Assembly (NCBI GenBank): GCA_964388035.1
Contig: CAYLZE010000059.1
Location: 1-30,923 of the forward strand
Origin: an uncultured archaeon
GTDB taxonomy: Archaea; Asgardarchaeota; Lokiarchaeia; Sigyniarchaeales; SOKP01
Reading direction: 5' to 3'
DNA length: 30,923 nt
The notes below the pieces were generated by a model that worked only from the letters and a program-made list of their open reading frames with translations, had not been told where the DNA came from and searched no databases. Shown here one piece after another: positions 3,516-22,553 of the stretch (the stretch's first letter is position 1; every line of letters begins with the position of its first letter). A program made the translations under genes and the position numbers.

Positions 3516-4790
3516 ATGTTTATAGAAAAATTAGGTCTTTCACGGGAAGAATTGAAGGATAAGGTTGCTCTCGTGACGGGAGCAGGAAGAGGAATTGGAA
3601 AAGAGCTGGCAAAAGCTCTTGCTTGGCTTGGAGCAGAAGTTATCATTGCTGAGATTAATGATACCGGAAAAGAGGTAGAAAGTGAGATCCTTTCAGAAGG
3701 ATTTTCTGCATTATTTATTCAAATAGACGTCTCAAACGAAAAAGATATTTCGCGCTTACAAAAACAAGTAATGAAAAAATATGGGAAAGTGGATATTTTA
3801 ATAAATAACGCGATTGTATATACCGTGGGGTCTCTTTCAGAGTTATCTATCGAAGAATGGGATCGTGCTTATAATGTTAATATTAGAGGTGCCATGCTCT
3901 TGACCAAAACATTTCTTTCAAGCATGATAGAGAGGAATTCAGGAGTGATTAATTTTGTGACTTCCGCGGAAGGCATGCCCTTCATGGCACCTTATTTTGC
4001 TTCAAAAACAGCATTAGCATCCATTGGGCATTCTCTGGCTGCAGAACTTGAGGATACAGGCATATCAGTATTTATTTTTGGTCCTGGAATGGTAGATACT
4101 CCTGGCTTGCAATATGCGACCAAAGAATTAGCGCCAAAACTAGGGATGATGGGAACAGAATTTCTAAACATGGGAGGAAATCCTGGTTATGATGGTCCCA
4201 TGCCAGCTGATCATTGTGCTGCGGGATGGGCATATACAATAGTTCATGCGAAAGATTATCACGGTCAAATTGCGGAACCCTTTGGAATTTTACTAGGTAA
4301 AGGATTGACCGGAAATAAAAAACAAAAAAAATCGATCTCGGAAAATAAGAAGGAGTTGATAACAATACTCGATAATTCTCTGAATACGATTCAAGGATTG
4401 GAAGCTGTTCTTGGAAAAATTGATAAAGAATTGGAAGATTTGGGATATTTTGTTAAAAAATGGATGAGCCGCACCTTGACAAAAAGATGTGGAATTGAAT
4501 TTAATCAATTTAAAATGATAATGTCAGAAATGCATGAAAACTTGATTAAATCAAAAGAACTAATAGCCAATCAAAAATTAGATTCCTTTGTTGAATTAGG
4601 GAAAAAATTTCCATGGTATAATGAACTTATTAAACGCTTAATGAGACATTTAGAAGAATGCAAGAAAGACGCGAAAGGATGGATGAAGAATCCCGAAGAA
4701 TTAATAGTTGCTTTAAATGAACTAGAAAGTAGAGAAAACGATGTAAACCAATTTTTAATCAATCTAAAACCTCTCATGGATTATGTATGA
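3516..4790 (+). CDS. Short-chain dehydrogenase/reductase with a ~150-aa helical C-terminal extension
   Basis: TGAGRGIG, DILINNA, catalytic YFASK and PGMVDT motifs. Confidence 0.9.
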   Translation: MFIEKLGLSREELKDKVALVTGAGRGIGKELAKALAWLGAEVIIAEINDTGKEVESEILSEGFSALFIQIDVSNEKDISRLQKQVMKKYGKVDILINNAIVYTVGSLSELSIEEWDRAYNVNIRGAMLLTKTFLSSMIERNSGVINFVTSAEGMPFMAPYFASKTALASIGHSLAAELEDTGISVFIFGPGMVDTPGLQYATKELAPKLGMMGTEFLNMGGNPGYDGPMPADHCAAGWAYTIVHAKDYHGQIAEPFGILLGKGLTGNKKQKKSISENKKELITILDNSLNTIQGLEAVLGKIDKELEDLGYFVKKWMSRTLTKRCGIEFNQFKMIMSEMHENLIKSKELIANQKLDSFVELGKKFPWYNELIKRLMRHLEECKKDAKGWMKNPEELIVALNELESRENDVNQFLINLKPLMDYV

Positions 4791-5035: not shown

Positions 5036-6466
5036 ATGACTTATGATATAGAGAATAAAATCTCCGTGCATATTGGACTTTTCGGTCACATTGATTCTGG
5101 TAAGACAGCAGTAGCGGAAGTGCTTTCAGAGATTATTTCCACTGCAGGTATTGATGCTCATCCCCAAAGCAAGGAACGTGGAATTACTATTGATTTGGGC
5201 TTTACTAGTTTCATTGTAGGGGATTATCTCATCACTTTAGTGGATGGACCGGGGCATGCAGACTTGATAAAGATCAGTGCATCTTCGGTTGAAATTATTG
5301 ATTGTGCCTTGATTGTTATAGACATTAATAAGGGACCACAAATCCAAACCGGAGAACATCTTATCATGATTGAAGCCCTGAAAATAAGAAAAGTTATCAT
5401 TATTTTAAATAAAGTTGATTTATTTAAGGGTAATCTTAAAGAGGAAGAAAAGCGTATCAGGAATTTTTTTAAATCCACCTCATTTGGTGAAAATATCCCA
5501 ATTTATCCCGTATCGGCCAAGAAAAAAATAGGTTTTGAACAATTAAAGGAGGGAATTTATGATGTTATTAAAACTTTGAAAATAAATAGGGATGTGGAGG
5601 GAGATTTGGTGATTCCCGTGGATCATTATTTCAACATCAAGGGAATGGGAACCATTTTAACCGGAACGATATTAAGGGGGGAATTGAGGATTAATCAATC
5701 TATAGTGATCCTGCCTTTAAATATAGCCACTCGAGTTAAAAACATCCAAATTTTTCATCAAAATGTGGACAAAGCAAAAGCCGGAGATCGAGTGGGAGTT
5801 AATTTAAAAAGTGTGGATGTAAAAAAACTTTATAGAGGGTGTTATCTCACCTCTAACCCGGATGCATTTGAATTTTGCTCCGTAATTGAAGTTTCTATTG
5901 CAAAAAATTCATTATTCAAGCCTGAAATTCGATTTGGCAGTCAAATTCACTTGACCATAGGAATGCTTACTGTCGCGGGAAATATATATCCTTATGAAAT
6001 AAAAGATGAAAAACGGATGAAAAAAGATATAATCACTGAAGTTCAAAATTTTTCCGCCATTCTCTGGTTGCACGACAATGTCTTAATTAACAAGCAGAAA
6101 AGCACTTTCTTAATTAGCAGGCTAGATCTCCCTCCTACCACTCTCCGAATCATGGGAGCCGCAGAATTAAAACAAATTTTTCAAGAACCACCTCTATTTT
6201 ATCGTTATAAAATTAAAAAAGGGAAAATACTCAATCCTGACCATCCCCAGGGGATAGTATGTAGTGGATTAGCAAAGAGCGTGGAGGGGGCAAAGAAAAT
6301 AATAGGGAAGAAATTAGAACCTCCATTCACGAAAATCTTAGATTCATTCGGCACAAAAGGGCAAGTAATTGTAGGTATAGGAGATGTGAGCAAGAAAGTC
6401 AATAAAGGAGATCTTGTCGAACTTAAGGAATTATTTTATTTTCAATTAAAAAAATTTAAATCTTGA
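5036..6466 (+). CDS. selB: Selenocysteine-specific translation elongation factor SelB/eEFSec (archaeal-eukaryal type)
   Basis: G1 GHIDSGKT, switch I STAGIDAHPQSKERGITIDLGF, G3 DGPGH, G4 NKVD. Domain II 'DHYFNIKGMGTILTGT', domain III 'RLDLPPTTLRI', and a short domain IV ending 'SFGTKG'. 476 aa, with no bacterial winged-helix tail. Confidence 0.88.
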   Translation: MTYDIENKISVHIGLFGHIDSGKTAVAEVLSEIISTAGIDAHPQSKERGITIDLGFTSFIVGDYLITLVDGPGHADLIKISASSVEIIDCALIVIDINKGPQIQTGEHLIMIEALKIRKVIIILNKVDLFKGNLKEEEKRIRNFFKSTSFGENIPIYPVSAKKKIGFEQLKEGIYDVIKTLKINRDVEGDLVIPVDHYFNIKGMGTILTGTILRGELRINQSIVILPLNIATRVKNIQIFHQNVDKAKAGDRVGVNLKSVDVKKLYRGCYLTSNPDAFEFCSVIEVSIAKNSLFKPEIRFGSQIHLTIGMLTVAGNIYPYEIKDEKRMKKDIITEVQNFSAILWLHDNVLINKQKSTFLISRLDLPPTTLRIMGAAELKQIFQEPPLFYRYKIKKGKILNPDHPQGIVCSGLAKSVEGAKKIIGKKLEPPFTKILDSFGTKGQVIVGIGDVSKKVNKGDLVELKELFYFQLKKFKS

Positions 6467-8135: not shown

Positions 8136-8624
8136 ATCAAATCACGTTCTTTTTTTTACATTGGTGTCAATATATTAGATTTCAAAAAAAAATAGGATAA
8201 CATTATATTTAAAATTATAGCCCCAAATTCAATAATTAATAACTCAAAGAGATAAATTGTAGCAAGAATCTATTAGAAAAGAATTAATCGCTCGTATAAC
8301 TATAAAATGATGAAAAAACGAATTTAACTTAGATTTTATGTATAAATTTTATACCGTTGGGATTCTGAGAGCAATAAGATTCCATATTTAAGGGCGTGTA
8401 TTTTTTAAAGGAAAGATCGATTATCTAAAGGAAATGATGGTTAATTAGGTGTGTAGAAAATTATATATTTTAAATATATCAACAAGCGATTTAATAATGC
8501 AATGAATTCTTCTTCTATTAATGAATAAATGGAAATTTAAATAAAAACTAAGAAATAGAAAAGTGTTTTATAGTACCACAAAAAATAAAAAAAAAGAATA
8601 GTGTTTCTTCTCTGCCAAGATTTC

Positions 8625-9206
8625 TCAAAGAATTAATATTAAACCTATATAGTCAAAAAAAATGGTAGCTAATACTCCTAATTCCAAGATCATCCATAAA
8701 TTTCTCTTGAAGGACCGAAAGGATTTTAGAGGTTTCCCTTCATAATTGATCATGTTATAAATCATTATCATAATCCAAGCAGTGAATAGAAGCACTACGG
8801 GTAAGAGTAGCGAGAGAATCGAATGATTTGTAAAATCTTTCAAATACTCATATCCTAATATGGAAAAACCGGATATTACTAATGTGAAGCCAAAACCAAA
8901 ACTATATTCCGCAAAACTTATCCATTTATTAATTCTTTGTTCCGAGGAATTTCCAGATTCGACTTCAAAATGAGCTTTTGAATTTGAGGAGACGGAGTTT
9001 ACAAAAAGAATGAATGATAATAATAAAAGAAAAGTAGCAGTTACAATGCCATTAGTGGGACGCGCTTGCCAAATAAGAGCTAAAATCGTAAGAACCGCCC
9101 CAATCATCGTTGAAGATAATACAATCCAATCCCTCACATTTACTTTTTTCGTAATCTCAATTTCTTCGGTCATCTTCTTAACAATATGGGTAATTATATT
9201 GATCAT
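8625..9206 (-). CDS. Hypothetical multi-pass membrane protein (about 5 TM; alternative start 9173)
   Basis: Five hydrophobic segments in a 193-aa ORF. Confidence 0.7.
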   Translation of the reverse strand: MINIITHIVKKMTEEIEITKKVNVRDWIVLSSTMIGAVLTILALIWQARPTNGIVTATFLLLLSFILFVNSVSSNSKAHFEVESGNSSEQRINKWISFAEYSFGFGFTLVISGFSILGYEYLKDFTNHSILSLLLPVVLLFTAWIMIMIYNMINYEGKPLKSFRSFKRNLWMILELGVLATIFFDYIGLILIL

Positions 9207-10412: not shown

Positions 10413-10627
10413 TGGTCCATCGGGGAATTTCAGTACATCCGTTATCCAGATCCTACATTTGAACCCCGGCTCTCGGGTTTGCCTCGATCCAGGACAAATT
10501 TTTTTCCATGTATGTCCGGTGTCTTATAAGACCCGCGCTTGTTGGCCAAGCGATTGCTTACCCGTTAACCATTTCAGATAAGGAATTACCTTTACAAGGT
10601 TTCCTTGATTGGCTGAGCTAATGGACC
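10413..10627 (-). tRNA. tRNA-Ile(UAU) with four introns: 10572-10610 (39 nt, D-loop 17/17a), 10541-10565 (25 nt, 21/22), 10480-10524 (45 nt, 37/38), 10427-10457 (31 nt, 59/60)
   Basis: Spliced by hand: GGTCCAT TA GCTC AGCCTGGTTA AAGC G CGGGT CT-TAT-AA ACCCG AGAGC CGGGG TTCAAAT CCCCG ATGGACC A (75 nt). Acceptor stem (7 bp), anticodon stem (5 bp) and T-stem (5 bp) are perfect. C4-G69 and A73 fit Ile. BHB central helices are TCAG/CTGA, TGGT/GCCA and TTCA/TGAA. The 37/38 helix is imperfect (CTTA/GAGG). Anticodon at 10526-10528. Confidence 0.85.
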
Positions 10628-18124: not shown

Positions 18125-18403
18125 ATGAGTAAAAATGTATATGATATTGGACGAGTTTGCGTCAAAACTACGGGAAGAGAAGCAGGAAAACATTGCATAA
18201 TCGTGGATATTATAGATAAAAATTACTTATTAATTGATGGATTAACGGTTAGAAGAAGAAGGGTCAATTATAATCATGTTGAACCCCTAGAGGACATGGT
18301 AGATATCAAGAAAGGCGCTTCTCATAAGGACGTGGAAGCAGCCATAACCAAGGCTAAATTAACCGAAATGATGAATCAAGTAATTTCCATTCCCATAAGT
18401 TAA
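18125..18403 (+). CDS. rpl14e: 50S ribosomal protein eL14
   Basis: IGRVCVKTTGREAGKHCIIVDIIDKNYLLIDG...VRRRRVNYNHVEP. Confidence 0.96.
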   Translation: MSKNVYDIGRVCVKTTGREAGKHCIIVDIIDKNYLLIDGLTVRRRRVNYNHVEPLEDMVDIKKGASHKDVEAAITKAKLTEMMNQVISIPIS

Positions 18404-18456
18404 AGTGTTCTAATCTACTGGTAAATATTCTTTCTCAAATTCATTTTTTTTTATTT

Positions 18457-18618
18457 GCAACGGTTGCGCAGCCTGGTAGCGTGTGATGATAAGCTTTTGC
18501 GCCAGAAACGCGCTGGCTTGGAGCTAAGCATTCTTGCTAAAAAGCCAGTGTCCATTTGGACTCGGGGGTTCGAATTTTTCTACCTATCGTAGGAAAAGAA
18601 TATATCCCTCCCGTTGCG
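18457..18618 (+). tRNA. tRNA-Ser(GGA) with three introns: 18479-18507 (29 nt, 21/22), 18524-18542 (19 nt, 37/38), 18574-18603 (30 nt, 58/59)
   Basis: Spliced: GCAACGG TT GCGC AGCCTGGTA ACGC G CTGGC TT-GGA-GA GCCAG TGTCCATTTGGACTC GGGGG TTCGAAT CCCTC CCGTTGC G (84 nt). Long variable arm GTCC/GGAC and G73 fit Ser. BHB helices are CTGG/CCAG, TTGG/CTAA and GTTC/GAAT. Anticodon at 18520-18522. Confidence 0.9.
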
Positions 18619-18772
18619 CTTATAAAAAAAAGAGGAAACCGGATCATGCGTTAATTCAGTATCCTCCTCTTTAATCCATACTTATTTAATATAGGCAAAA
18701 ATTATAAGAATTTCAAAACTTTCACATTATTAATATTTATTCAAAATTAATGACTGGAAGTATTATAAAAAC

Positions 18773-19156
18773 ATGAATCGAATAATTGGTATACCAGCAA
18801 ATGGTCCTGAATTAAGTGATACGATTTCTGATCATTTTGGCCATTGCGCCTGGTTTGTGGGTGTTGAATTAACAGATGGCACTGATATGAAAAAAGTGTT
18901 TGCCCTTGAAAATAACGGACATTCATCCTGCATGGAACCGGTGATAAATATGAAGGATAGAAAAGTGAGTGATATGATAGTAGGAGGGATTGGGGGCCGA
19001 CCATACAATGGATTTATTGAAATGGGAATAAGCCTCTTCCAAGGAGTGAGCGGGACAATTCAGCAAAATATTTCGTTATTAATGCAGGGAAAGCTCAAGG
19101 GCTTGGGAGGACCTCACTGTTCTGGTGGCGAACAGCATTATGCTGAGTCGCAATGA
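18773..19156 (+). CDS. NifB/NifX (dinitrogenase FeMo-cofactor-binding) family protein
   Basis: 'ISDHFGHCAWF', 'HSSC..PV', 'MIVGGIGGRP', Cys/His-containing tail. Confidence 0.88.
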   Translation: MNRIIGIPANGPELSDTISDHFGHCAWFVGVELTDGTDMKKVFALENNGHSSCMEPVINMKDRKVSDMIVGGIGGRPYNGFIEMGISLFQGVSGTIQQNISLLMQGKLKGLGGPHCSGGEQHYAESQ

Positions 19157-19935: not shown

Positions 19936-20269
19936 AACAGCATTTTTTGCGGTAATGACAATTTCACCTTAGAAAATAGTTTAACATGTAGAAGCATTTT
20001 TACTTTAAATAGATTCGAAATTACACAAATTTAGAGAATTTAATTGTCATGTAAAAATAAAATAAGGATTACGAGAATTAAAATAATTTGTCATGAATCT
20101 ATGGGATTTATATGATCCCAATAGACTTTCGATCTCTTTTTATTTATTCCAAGGATAACCAAACAAAAAAATGAAAATAAGTGAATTAAACCAATTTAGA
20201 GAAAAAATATAAAAAAAACCAGAAGCTTTTCCTTCCCAGCAATACTTGAAGTTAATAAATCATCTGTAA

Positions 20270-21083: not shown

Positions 21084-22553
21084 TTAATCAACCCCCAACA
21101 TCGCACGCATGGAAGGATATTGAGCTGCAGCTACTTGCTTAGAGATCTCCTCTGCAAATTGATGAACGATTCCAATAGAGATGAGAAGTCCCGTTCCAGA
21201 ACTGAGAGCCCCTAGACTATCCGCGGTAAAACTTAGCAATGCAATGAATATTCCGTTAAGTATTACTAACGTAGGAATATATCGTTTTAGAATTCTTTCA
21301 ATAATTTTTTCTGAACTTCTAAATCCCGGAATCATCATGCCCGAATCGAGAATTTGTTGAGCAATATCACGCGGTGCTAATCCCGACACCTCGACCCACA
21401 TCCTCCCTAAATAAACGCATAATATGATGAAAAATATTACATAGGTAAACGCCCTGAGCGGATCCGCCACTAATTCGGTCAATCCTTGAGGGGGTGAGAA
21501 ATAATAGAGAAGACCACCCGTAGGTTTTAAATAATTTCCTGTAGAAGTTCCAGAACTCTCTTGCTCAAATTTTCCAATTAGATCCAACCAAAAGTTTGAG
21601 TTAGCATTCCGCAATGATGAATTTGGACCTGCTATCAGCTGCCCAAAAAATAGAAAATTAGCATACAAGGCATTCACTAAGATAACAGGAATATTAGAAA
21701 CATACATGAGTTTCATGGGATACTTACCCTTATACCCTCGATAGCCTCGATATGCTAAGGGAATTTCGATCCGTGCAGATTCAAACCAGCTCACAATAAG
21801 AAAGATAATCACGGTCGTGATCACTCCTAAGAGGGAGGGCAAATTGCCTCTAATAAAAATGGTACTTAGCGTGGTTTTATCATTGTTATCAAACAATACT
21901 GTGAAAAACGCGATAGCAATCCCCCTGGGAAGATGATACTCATCGGGAGCTTCTATAAAACTGAAACTATTCCAGAAAATCTGTCCCGCAACTCCTGCCG
22001 CAATAAAGAGGGATACACCACTCCCAATCCCCCATCCTTTTTGTAGCAATTCGTCTAATAAGATTATAATGATCCCCGAGAATAATAATTGGACAAATAT
22101 TAACGCTGCATTTTGAATCCCAATCGTAGATAACTCACCAAAAGCTCCTCCGATGATATACGCTATAGAATTGAATATTGTGAGGATCACCGCAAAAACT
22201 TTTTGCGATCCGCTAAACATGGAGCGATCATAAGGGTCTGACATGTCAATATTAATCAACTTGGAACCCAAAAGCAATTGCATTATAAGCCCTGCAGTTA
22301 CAATAGGACCAATTCCCAATTCCGTTAGAGTGCCTCGTTGACTAGCTAATATGACACGCATCCAATAAAAATAATCCGTTGAATTTTGGAGATTCACCCC
22401 GTAGAGGGGAATATTGCTCATGATCAAATAAATTACGAGAATTAGCGCCGTCCACACGAACTTTTCTTTGAAAGAAACTTCGCGCTGGGGTCGCTTTATC
22501 TCTGGCATCACGCGCACTAAGGGCGCGAAGAATTTAATGAATTTTCCAGTCAT
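21084..22553 (-). CDS. secY: Protein translocase subunit SecY / Sec61alpha
   Basis: 'PEIKRPQREVSFKEKFVWT', 'RVILASQRGTLTELGIGPIVTAGLIMQLL', 'DELLQKGWGIGSGVSLFIA', 'YPMKLMYVSNIPVIL', 'IPGFR'. Confidence 0.98.
   Translation of the reverse strand: MTGKFIKFFAPLVRVMPEIKRPQREVSFKEKFVWTALILVIYLIMSNIPLYGVNLQNSTDYFYWMRVILASQRGTLTELGIGPIVTAGLIMQLLLGSKLINIDMSDPYDRSMFSGSQKVFAVILTIFNSIAYIIGGAFGELSTIGIQNAALIFVQLLFSGIIIILLDELLQKGWGIGSGVSLFIAAGVAGQIFWNSFSFIEAPDEYHLPRGIAIAFFTVLFDNNDKTTLSTIFIRGNLPSLLGVITTVIIFLIVSWFESARIEIPLAYRGYRGYKGKYPMKLMYVSNIPVILVNALYANFLFFGQLIAGPNSSLRNANSNFWLDLIGKFEQESSGTSTGNYLKPTGGLLYYFSPPQGLTELVADPLRAFTYVIFFIILCVYLGRMWVEVSGLAPRDIAQQILDSGMMIPGFRSSEKIIERILKRYIPTLVILNGIFIALLSFTADSLGALSSGTGLLISIGIVHQFAEEISKQVAAAQYPSMRAMLGVD

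Follow-up and report, generated by a model that had tools for sequence, protein, structure and literature searches.

The window considered here, that is the whole 30,923-nt stretch of DNA from an uncultured Asgard archaeon, carries on its plus strand a tRNA-Ser(GGA) gene interrupted by three introns, located in the D-loop, in the anticodon loop and in the T-loop. The gene is supported by ARAGORN, by orthologues and by the fold of the precursor; its parts, together with the bulge-helix-bulge (BHB) score of each intron, are the following.

18457..18618, plus strand: tRNA-Ser(GGA) gene, 162 nt, from position 1 to the discriminator G73
18457..18478, plus strand: exon 1, acceptor 5' strand, U8, D-stem 5' strand and D-loop to A21
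18479..18507, plus strand: intron 1, D-loop, 21/22, 29 nt, BHB score 15.2
18508..18523, plus strand: exon 2, D-stem 3' strand, G26, anticodon stem 5' strand and positions 32-37, with the anticodon GGA
18524..18542, plus strand: intron 2, anticodon loop, canonical 37/38, 19 nt, BHB score 17.4
18543..18573, plus strand: exon 3, A38, anticodon stem 3' strand, 15-nt variable arm, T-stem 5' strand and T-loop 54-58
18574..18603, plus strand: intron 3, T-loop, 58/59, 30 nt, BHB score 18.8
18604..18618, plus strand: exon 4, T-loop 59-60, T-stem 3' strand, acceptor 3' strand and G73

The joined exons amount to 84 nt of a class II tRNA-Ser with 63% GC, against 27-48% GC in the three inserts, and ARAGORN calls the product as tRNA-Ser(gga), with a clean cloverleaf, a long variable arm, an acceptor stem of 7 bp, a D-stem of 3 bp and the T-loop TTCGAAT. 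The acceptor stem pairs 5' GCAACGG with 3' CCGTTGC and is followed by the discriminator G, no CCA being encoded at the 3' end of the gene; the anticodon loop, TTGGAGA, has 7 nt with U33 and a purine at 37, and the 15-nt variable region contains a 4-bp stem (GTCC/GGAC). The mature D-stem has a C13-A22 mismatch, found also in the same-genus genome G001. An earlier note, made from the letters of this DNA, had proposed a three-intron tRNA-Ser(GGA) with sites 21/22, 37/38 and 58/59, and the gene coordinates and intron sites obtained here agree with the note. The precursor folds at -60.6 kcal/mol (z = -3.9), and the minimum free energy and centroid folds both contain the acceptor stem, all three arms and the hairpins of the introns. 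No tRNA is called anywhere in the window by ARAGORN or Rfam, permissive thresholds included, nor by Rfam at E <= 10 over 18300-18800; the tRNA model RF00005 is without a match at this locus because the introns interrupt the tRNA. For this gene neither a clear archaeal promoter nor an oligo-T terminator could be established, and neither the tRNA census described below nor BLAST found a second Ser(GGA) gene in the genome.

The last 4 nt of each insert pair with an exon tetranucleotide placed two positions upstream of the 5' cut, giving rise to the following motifs.

D-loop intron, 21/22: central helix CTGG/CCAG, bulges TA-G and AA-A, inner helix CGTG/TGCG
Anticodon-loop intron, 37/38: central helix TTGG/CTAA (one G-U), bulges AG-C and AA-A, inner helix TAAG/CTTG
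T-loop intron, 58/59: central helix GTTC/GAAT (one G-U), bulges GA-A and AT-A, 9-bp inner hairpin with loop CTATC

All three introns thus have 4/4 central pairs between two 3-nt bulges, in keeping with the 4-bp helix and 3-nt bulges that had been read from the letters. The 37/38 and 58/59 motifs are of the full hBHBh' form, with an h of 6 bp (the anticodon stem) and an h' of 4 bp in the former, and an h of 4 bp and an h' of 8-9 bp in the latter; the 21/22 motif is of the relaxed form, having an h' of 4 bp (two of them G-U) and no outer exon helix h, its 3' bulge lying within an internal loop opposite four unpaired bases. The composite scores of 15.2 (21/22), 17.4 (37/38) and 18.8 (58/59) compare with 13.0, 8.0 and 9.8 for the respective next-best registers. 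At 20,000 random window sites of the same lengths (mean 5.6, 99th percentile 13.1) a score of 15.2 is reached by 0.14% and one of 17.4 by 0.005%, while 18.8 is reached by none. Intron 1 also contains, at 18483-18489, the heptamer GTGATGA, a perfect match to the C-box consensus RUGAUGA, which is judged to be a chance occurrence; a C/D-box sRNA was considered and rejected, as there is no CTGA D box, the intron has only 29 nt, the Rfam snoU31b match is weak (E = 2.6) and GTGATGA is absent from the relatives.

The window holds a second interrupted tRNA gene, on the minus strand, which is likewise missed by ARAGORN and Rfam.

10413..10627, minus strand: tRNA-Ile(UAU) with four introns, the spliced 75-nt product being called as tRNA-Ile(tat)
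10572-10610, minus strand: intron, D-loop, 17/17a, 39 nt
10541-10565, minus strand: intron, 21/22, 25 nt
10480-10524, minus strand: intron, 37/38, 45 nt
10427-10457, minus strand: intron, T-loop, 59/60, 31 nt

The two genes belong to the same genome and are interrupted in the same three loops, so that the count of seven introns in two genes, distributed over the D-, anticodon and T-loops, holds (three in Ser, four in Ile). The Ile gene differs from the Ser gene in having two D-loop introns and a T-loop site at 59/60; the proposed coincidence of intron sites is therefore exact at 21/22 and 37/38, while in the T-loop the sites lie one base apart (58/59 versus 59/60). Unlike those of Ser(GGA), the Ile introns are older and common to several genera: the first D-loop intron is absent from six relative genomes, the second from three and the T-loop intron from four, and all relatives with the gene have a 37/38 intron. 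The latter is long and keeps recognisable sequence blocks across genera (loci L028-L036), and each of the 10 relatives found to have the gene keeps the anticodon UAU, not CAU. The Ile and Ser genes of G001 share a contig and are separated by about 8 kb, as in the window.

A BLAST search with the 162-nt sequence against 40 relatives found the Ser(GGA) gene in nine genomes, all of the same family, and the limits of these orthologues were set by a stem-anchored scanner before alignment. The exons are conserved, those of the window gene being identical or nearly so to those of G001, and the stems change with compensation, both in the acceptor stem (GCAACGG/CCGTTGC, GCAGACA/TGTCTGC, GCAGCTG/CAGCTGC, GCAGCGG/CCGCTGC) and in the anticodon stem (CTGGC/GCCAG, CGGGC/GCCCG, CCAGC/GCTGG); the variable arm also varies with compensation. 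None of the ten copies of the gene lacks the 37/38 intron, whose interior cannot be aligned and whose 3' tetranucleotide (CTAA, CCAA, CCAG, CCGA or CCAT) always fits TTGG. Five of the nine relatives have the T-loop intron, with its site at either 58/59 or 59/60; in the other four, whose T-loops read TTCGAAT or TTCAAAT, it was not found, and its distribution within the family is patchy. With RF00005 (cut-off 29), three orthologues in which the 37/38 intron is the only one reach 47-48 bits, and those carrying the T-loop intron are missed by the Rfam model.

The distribution of the D-loop intron is narrower, as it is found in none of the nine relatives and is absent also from the metagenome contig L041 (Ga0180433_10014266, 8520-8710), which has a related Ser(GGA) whose 37/38 and 59/60 introns differ; in these copies GGTA joins the 3' strand of the D-stem directly. 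In G001 the D-arm reads GCGC AGCCTGGTA ACGC, which is exactly the predicted spliced D-arm (junction GGTA-ACGC), and the other eight relatives have an uninterrupted 9-nt D-loop. A further metagenome contig, L042 (Ga0315536_1029425, 886-1047), matches the window without any difference in the region that was read, D-loop intron included. At the level of sequence, both non-canonical junctions of Ser(GGA) are hence confirmed by uninterrupted relatives. The D-loop intron would most simply have been gained after the split from G001; that it was lost in G001 and in all the other relatives instead seems unlikely.

The extent to which the rest of the genome is interrupted was examined by a census of its tRNA genes. 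The assembly (G000) comprises 5.47 Mb in 211 contigs with 33.4% GC, completeness being 96.7% and contamination 7.3%, and the SecY encoded in the window is nearest to those of MAGs labelled Promethearchaeota, Promethearchaeia and 'Hermodarchaeota', the nearest at 85% identity, which places the organism among the Asgard archaea (Promethearchaeota), probably in the Loki-type class. Genome-wide, ARAGORN reports seven tRNAs when its intron option is off and 22 when it is on, several being mistyped, and the Rfam tRNA model reports 19. A first census, which started from BHB motifs (strict motifs, GC-rich flanks and chains of up to four excisions, followed by ARAGORN), recovered Ser(GGA) and a few others, missed Ile(UAU) and yielded false matches in GC-rich contaminant contigs. 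It was replaced by a scan for the four stems in cloverleaf order, with the D-, anticodon and T-loops free to expand, scored on the GC content of the stems and on conserved bases and controlled by the reversed genome; 31 loci exceeded the threshold against none in the control in the first version, and 37 against five in a relaxed version, all five control matches lying on the GC-rich contaminant contigs C191, C197 and C200. These short contigs and C204 are unlike the 33% GC genome and give false positives in tRNA scans; all four are probably bacterial contamination of the MAG. BHB-guided excision was added for introns in stems, and a few loci were inspected by eye, seven genes (Trp, Pro GGG, Pro UGG, Ala CGC, Ser UGA, Ser CGA and Sec) being resolved in this way. 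Among missing isoacceptors, blastn-short with the spliced tRNAs found only Pro(TGG), on contig C19, and of the five targets of a search anchored on the anticodon arm (Ala GGC, Thr GGT, Thr TGT, elongator Met and Sec) Sec alone was recovered, on contig C6.

The census totals 43 tRNA genes with 63 introns, i.e. 1.45 per gene: 37/43 have at least one intron, 18/43 at least two and 7/43 at least three, and only 6/43 are intron-free, at variance with the prospect, raised as a possible refutation, that the other tRNAs would be mostly free of introns. Three introns each are carried by Gly CCC, Ile GAU, Pro CGG, Pro GGG, Ser GGA and Trp CCA, and four by Ile UAU. With the expected anticodon, ARAGORN confirmed 33 of the 39 automatically spliced products, the remaining six (C31 Leu CAA, C47, C62, C69, C104+ and C127) being ambiguous or failing. 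Neither the census nor the search anchored on the anticodon arm recovered Ala GGC, Thr GGU, Thr UGU or elongator Met, and the intron burden is for this reason a lower bound. The expectations that the genome is heavily invaded by introns and that many of its tRNAs are unannotated are both borne out, the latter by 43 genes against the 22 of ARAGORN with introns and the 19 of Rfam.

The pattern of introns in three loops recurs in about 37 tRNA genes of the genome. The 18 T-loop introns measure 28-32 nt, and their site is either 58/59 (helix GTTC/GAAY) or 59/60 (helix TTCR/YGAA). D-loop introns number 11 and measure 19-39 nt, with the conserved D-loop GG mostly in the central helix; the 21 anticodon-loop introns measure 16-54 nt. 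TCG is contained in 12 of the 18 T-loop introns (5.8 expected, P = 0.002), the pentaloop of several of their hairpins ends in TC (CTATC, TTTTC, TCCTC, TTCTC, ATATC), and a resemblance by eye is seen in the orthologous T-loop introns of several relatives. Some introns, resolved by eye only, lie outside the loops, at C47:35349-35510 (+), C39:34506-34607 (+), C19:~22275-22377 (+) and C127:12671-12834 (-): in Trp(CCA) the anticodon stem (30/31) and the variable region each seem to be interrupted, in Ala(CGC) an intron splits the 3' strand of the D-stem (24/25), and in Pro(UGG) and Pro(GGG) an intron separates the D-stem from the anticodon stem. Two intron-free genes, Glu(UUC) at C31:5697-5771 (+) and Gln(UUG) at C6:48395-48467 (-), have the anticodon loops CCTTCAC and CCTTGAA, with C33 in place of the near-universal U33. 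The candidate tRNA-Sec (UCA), on the plus strand of contig C6 at ~4053-4201, has expanded D- and T-regions; an archaeal SelB-type elongation factor is encoded in the window at 5036-6466 (+).

The enzymes required for the removal of such introns are encoded in the genome. Two EndA paralogues of about 200 aa each, both with the two Pfam EndA domains, are found on contigs C146 and C33; the former aligns over its full length with the catalytic subunit of the A. pernix enzyme (3P1Z_B, E = 1e-35; see also 3AJV) and keeps the active-site Tyr, His and Lys as well as the KPR of the Crenarchaea-specific loop, with its lysine. The C33 paralogue is without the active-site His and is therefore likely to be the structural beta subunit. 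The presence of this second, His-less paralogue matches the (alpha-beta)2 architecture of the Asgard/TACK L1-loop EndA (Kaneta et al. 2018, PMC5829648), an enzyme described in Asgard archaea and tied to a broad substrate range in the same study, which also reports incomplete tRNA sets in Asgard genomes. An RtcB ligase is encoded at C23:14016-15323. The features by which BHB tRNA introns are recognised, namely helix and bulges, at least one flanking helix, restoration of a tRNA and the enzymes, are found for Ser(GGA).

The locus is, with high probability, a functional tRNA-Ser(GGA), the only one detected in the genome, whose three introns would be cut by EndA and whose exons would be joined by RtcB. 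The gene would be transcribed as a precursor of about 162 nt, in which each insert and the conserved loop bases just upstream of it would fold into a bulge-helix-bulge; a heterotetrameric (alpha-beta)2 EndA, whose catalytic subunit bears the Crenarchaea/Asgard-type specific loop, would cut within both 3-nt bulges, RtcB would ligate the four exons, and CCA would be added later. That the introns are spliced is almost certain, as we infer from the sequence anatomy, the restored class II tRNA, the relatives with empty sites and the presence of the enzymes.

The silence of ARAGORN and Rfam at this locus would be expected also of a GC-rich intergenic stretch mimicking a split tRNA by chance, but this reading deserves practically no credence, being refuted by the alignment of the orthologues, which are conserved with compensatory changes in their stems, while Rfam recognises the less interrupted ones and reversed-control matches in the score range of Ser(GGA) occur only on C191, C197 and C200. 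It could be argued, instead, that the 29-nt D-loop insert is not removed, or poorly so, and that the gene was recently disabled, the locus being a young pseudogene or yielding a tRNA with an enlarged D-loop; indeed the insert is present in none of the nine relatives, nor in L041, the 21/22 motif is the weakest of the three and lacks the outer helix, and Goswami et al. (2026 preprint, 10.64898/2026.10.13.758758) speak of 'intervening sequences' for D-arm inserts, splicing being unproven. Yet the genome has no other Ser(GGA) gene that could be found, the exons are all intact, and the insert has a perfect 4-bp Watson-Crick central helix and two 3-nt bulges in exactly the register that gives back the ancestral D-loop; only 0.14% of random sites score as well, and ten other D-loop introns of the genome are built alike, so that a disabled gene is highly unlikely.

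If the functional tRNA-Ser(GGA) is preferred, the origin of its introns has still to be considered, since the earlier note had suggested that introns spread between tRNAs. The Ser(GGA) introns would in that case be copies of a mobile family moving between tRNA genes, as proposed for Thermoproteales, which would account for the sites common to Ser and Ile and for the TAAGC motif, and with which the very narrow lengths of the T-loop introns (28-32 nt) would agree. The 50 resolved introns were aligned locally all against all, noise being taken as the maximum, 14, of 30 composition-preserving shuffles, and only two pairs exceeded it. One consists of the T-loop introns of the isoacceptors Lys CUU and Lys UUU, whose likeness is most likely due to gene duplication. 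The other, with a score of 17, is the only pair above noise that joins different isotypes, and it speaks for a mobile family: it comprises the T-loop introns of Ser(GCU), at C10:6453-6566 (+), and Leu(GAG), at C23:25334-25470 (+), two class II tRNAs with an identical T-stem and near-identical introns of 30 nt, a likeness that gene conversion, or else copying of the 3' part, may explain. The Ser(GGA) introns themselves, against this reading, have best scores at noise level in the alignment, which the note had proposed as a check; their 21/22 intron and that of Ile have only TAAGC in common (score 5, P = 0.56 against shuffles), and TAAGC occurs in 4/50 introns (1.6 expected, P = 0.075), that is at chance. 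The 3' GCCA of the 21/22 introns is forced by exon pairing, as the note itself had stated, GCCA/CCAG pairing with the conserved GG of the D-loop. More generally, the Ser and Ile sites match because the 3' end of an intron pairs with conserved bases of the D-, anticodon or T-loop; matching sites are a genome-wide architecture and no evidence of common descent. By blastn no copy of the three Ser(GGA) introns was found in the genome; a 21-nt match to the T-loop intron at C25:8472-8492 (1 mismatch, E = 0.005) lies inside an uninterrupted membrane-protein frame and was set aside as chance. A donor of the D-loop intron was sought in the genome and in the 40 relatives with up to three mismatches, and only the Ser(GGA) locus itself matched. 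Related introns in different tRNAs, the mark of transposing introns, were thus not found for Ser(GGA), in agreement with the low share of cross-tRNA families in Asgard archaea, 1.5% of introns against 28% in Thermoproteales (10.64898/2026.10.13.758758). A mobile origin is accordingly very improbable, and the suggested spread between tRNAs is not upheld.

Crowded multi-intron tRNA genes are already published for other Asgard lineages, and Ser(GGA) is a clean further example. In complete Atabeyarchaeia and Freyarchaeia genomes 92-95% of the tRNA genes are interrupted, and more than half carry several introns, often at non-canonical positions (Valentin-Alvarado et al. 2024, PMC11291895). In the 90 Asgard genomes surveyed by Goswami et al. 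(10.64898/2026.10.13.758758), three focal families have 2.2 intervening sequences per gene and the others 0.9, with a maximum of five; tRNAscan-SE preferentially misses D-arm inserts, and 129 gains, 71 of them terminal, were counted, with an enrichment at canonical BHB sites and no donor route, the route of arrival being left open by these authors. Like those genomes, G000 has most of its tRNA genes interrupted and many with more than one intron, including non-canonical D- and T-arm sites and up to four introns per gene (4-5 in the published cases), and it has in common with them D-arm introns missed by annotators and a two-subunit EndA; the many terminal-branch gains without a donor also find their likeness in the Ser(GGA) D-loop intron. 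It differs from the focal Atabeyarchaeia and Freyr-/Jordiarchaeia in intron density (at least 1.45 per gene here, about 2.2 there) and in that its nearest labelled relatives are Promethearchaeia ('Loki-type') or Hermodarchaeota, the focal families being Freyr-, Jordi- and Atabeyarchaeaceae. Thermoproteales are likewise reported to have BHB introns at many non-canonical positions (Sugahara 2008; Fujishima 2010), up to three per gene, and an (alpha-beta)2 EndA with the Crenarchaea loop; there, related introns recur across tRNAs and are read as transposition, unlike the Ser(GGA) introns, which have no genomic relatives. G000 has, moreover, only 33% GC, set against Thermoproteales. The most interesting detail, among the genomes compared, is the D-loop intron, seen only in this lineage and with an intact empty site in the same-genus G001.

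It is tempting to ask whether tRNA and mRNA genes alike receive BHB-competent hairpins of about 30 nt through a single process that is still active, and such a process might consist in reverse splicing followed by retro-copying, or in templated insertion. The idea, which is speculative and rather unlikely, is based on the very young D-loop gain with an empty site in G001 and no donor in the genome or in 40 relatives, and on the T-loop introns of 28-32 nt, whose hairpin loops recurrently end in TC followed by G; if it were true, the G000/G001 pair would be a natural before-and-after case of intron insertion.

The Ser(GGA) locus is a fully documented Asgard tRNA gene missed by standard finders, to which about half of the tRNA set of this genome is invisible, as concerns ARAGORN and Rfam. 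The census also indicates a substantial intron load in a 'Loki-type' family outside the published focal families, placement being by nearest labelled relatives. Finally, the D-loop intron, with its empty site in the same-genus G001, would represent a dated intron gain, and as such it could help explain how BHB introns arrive.
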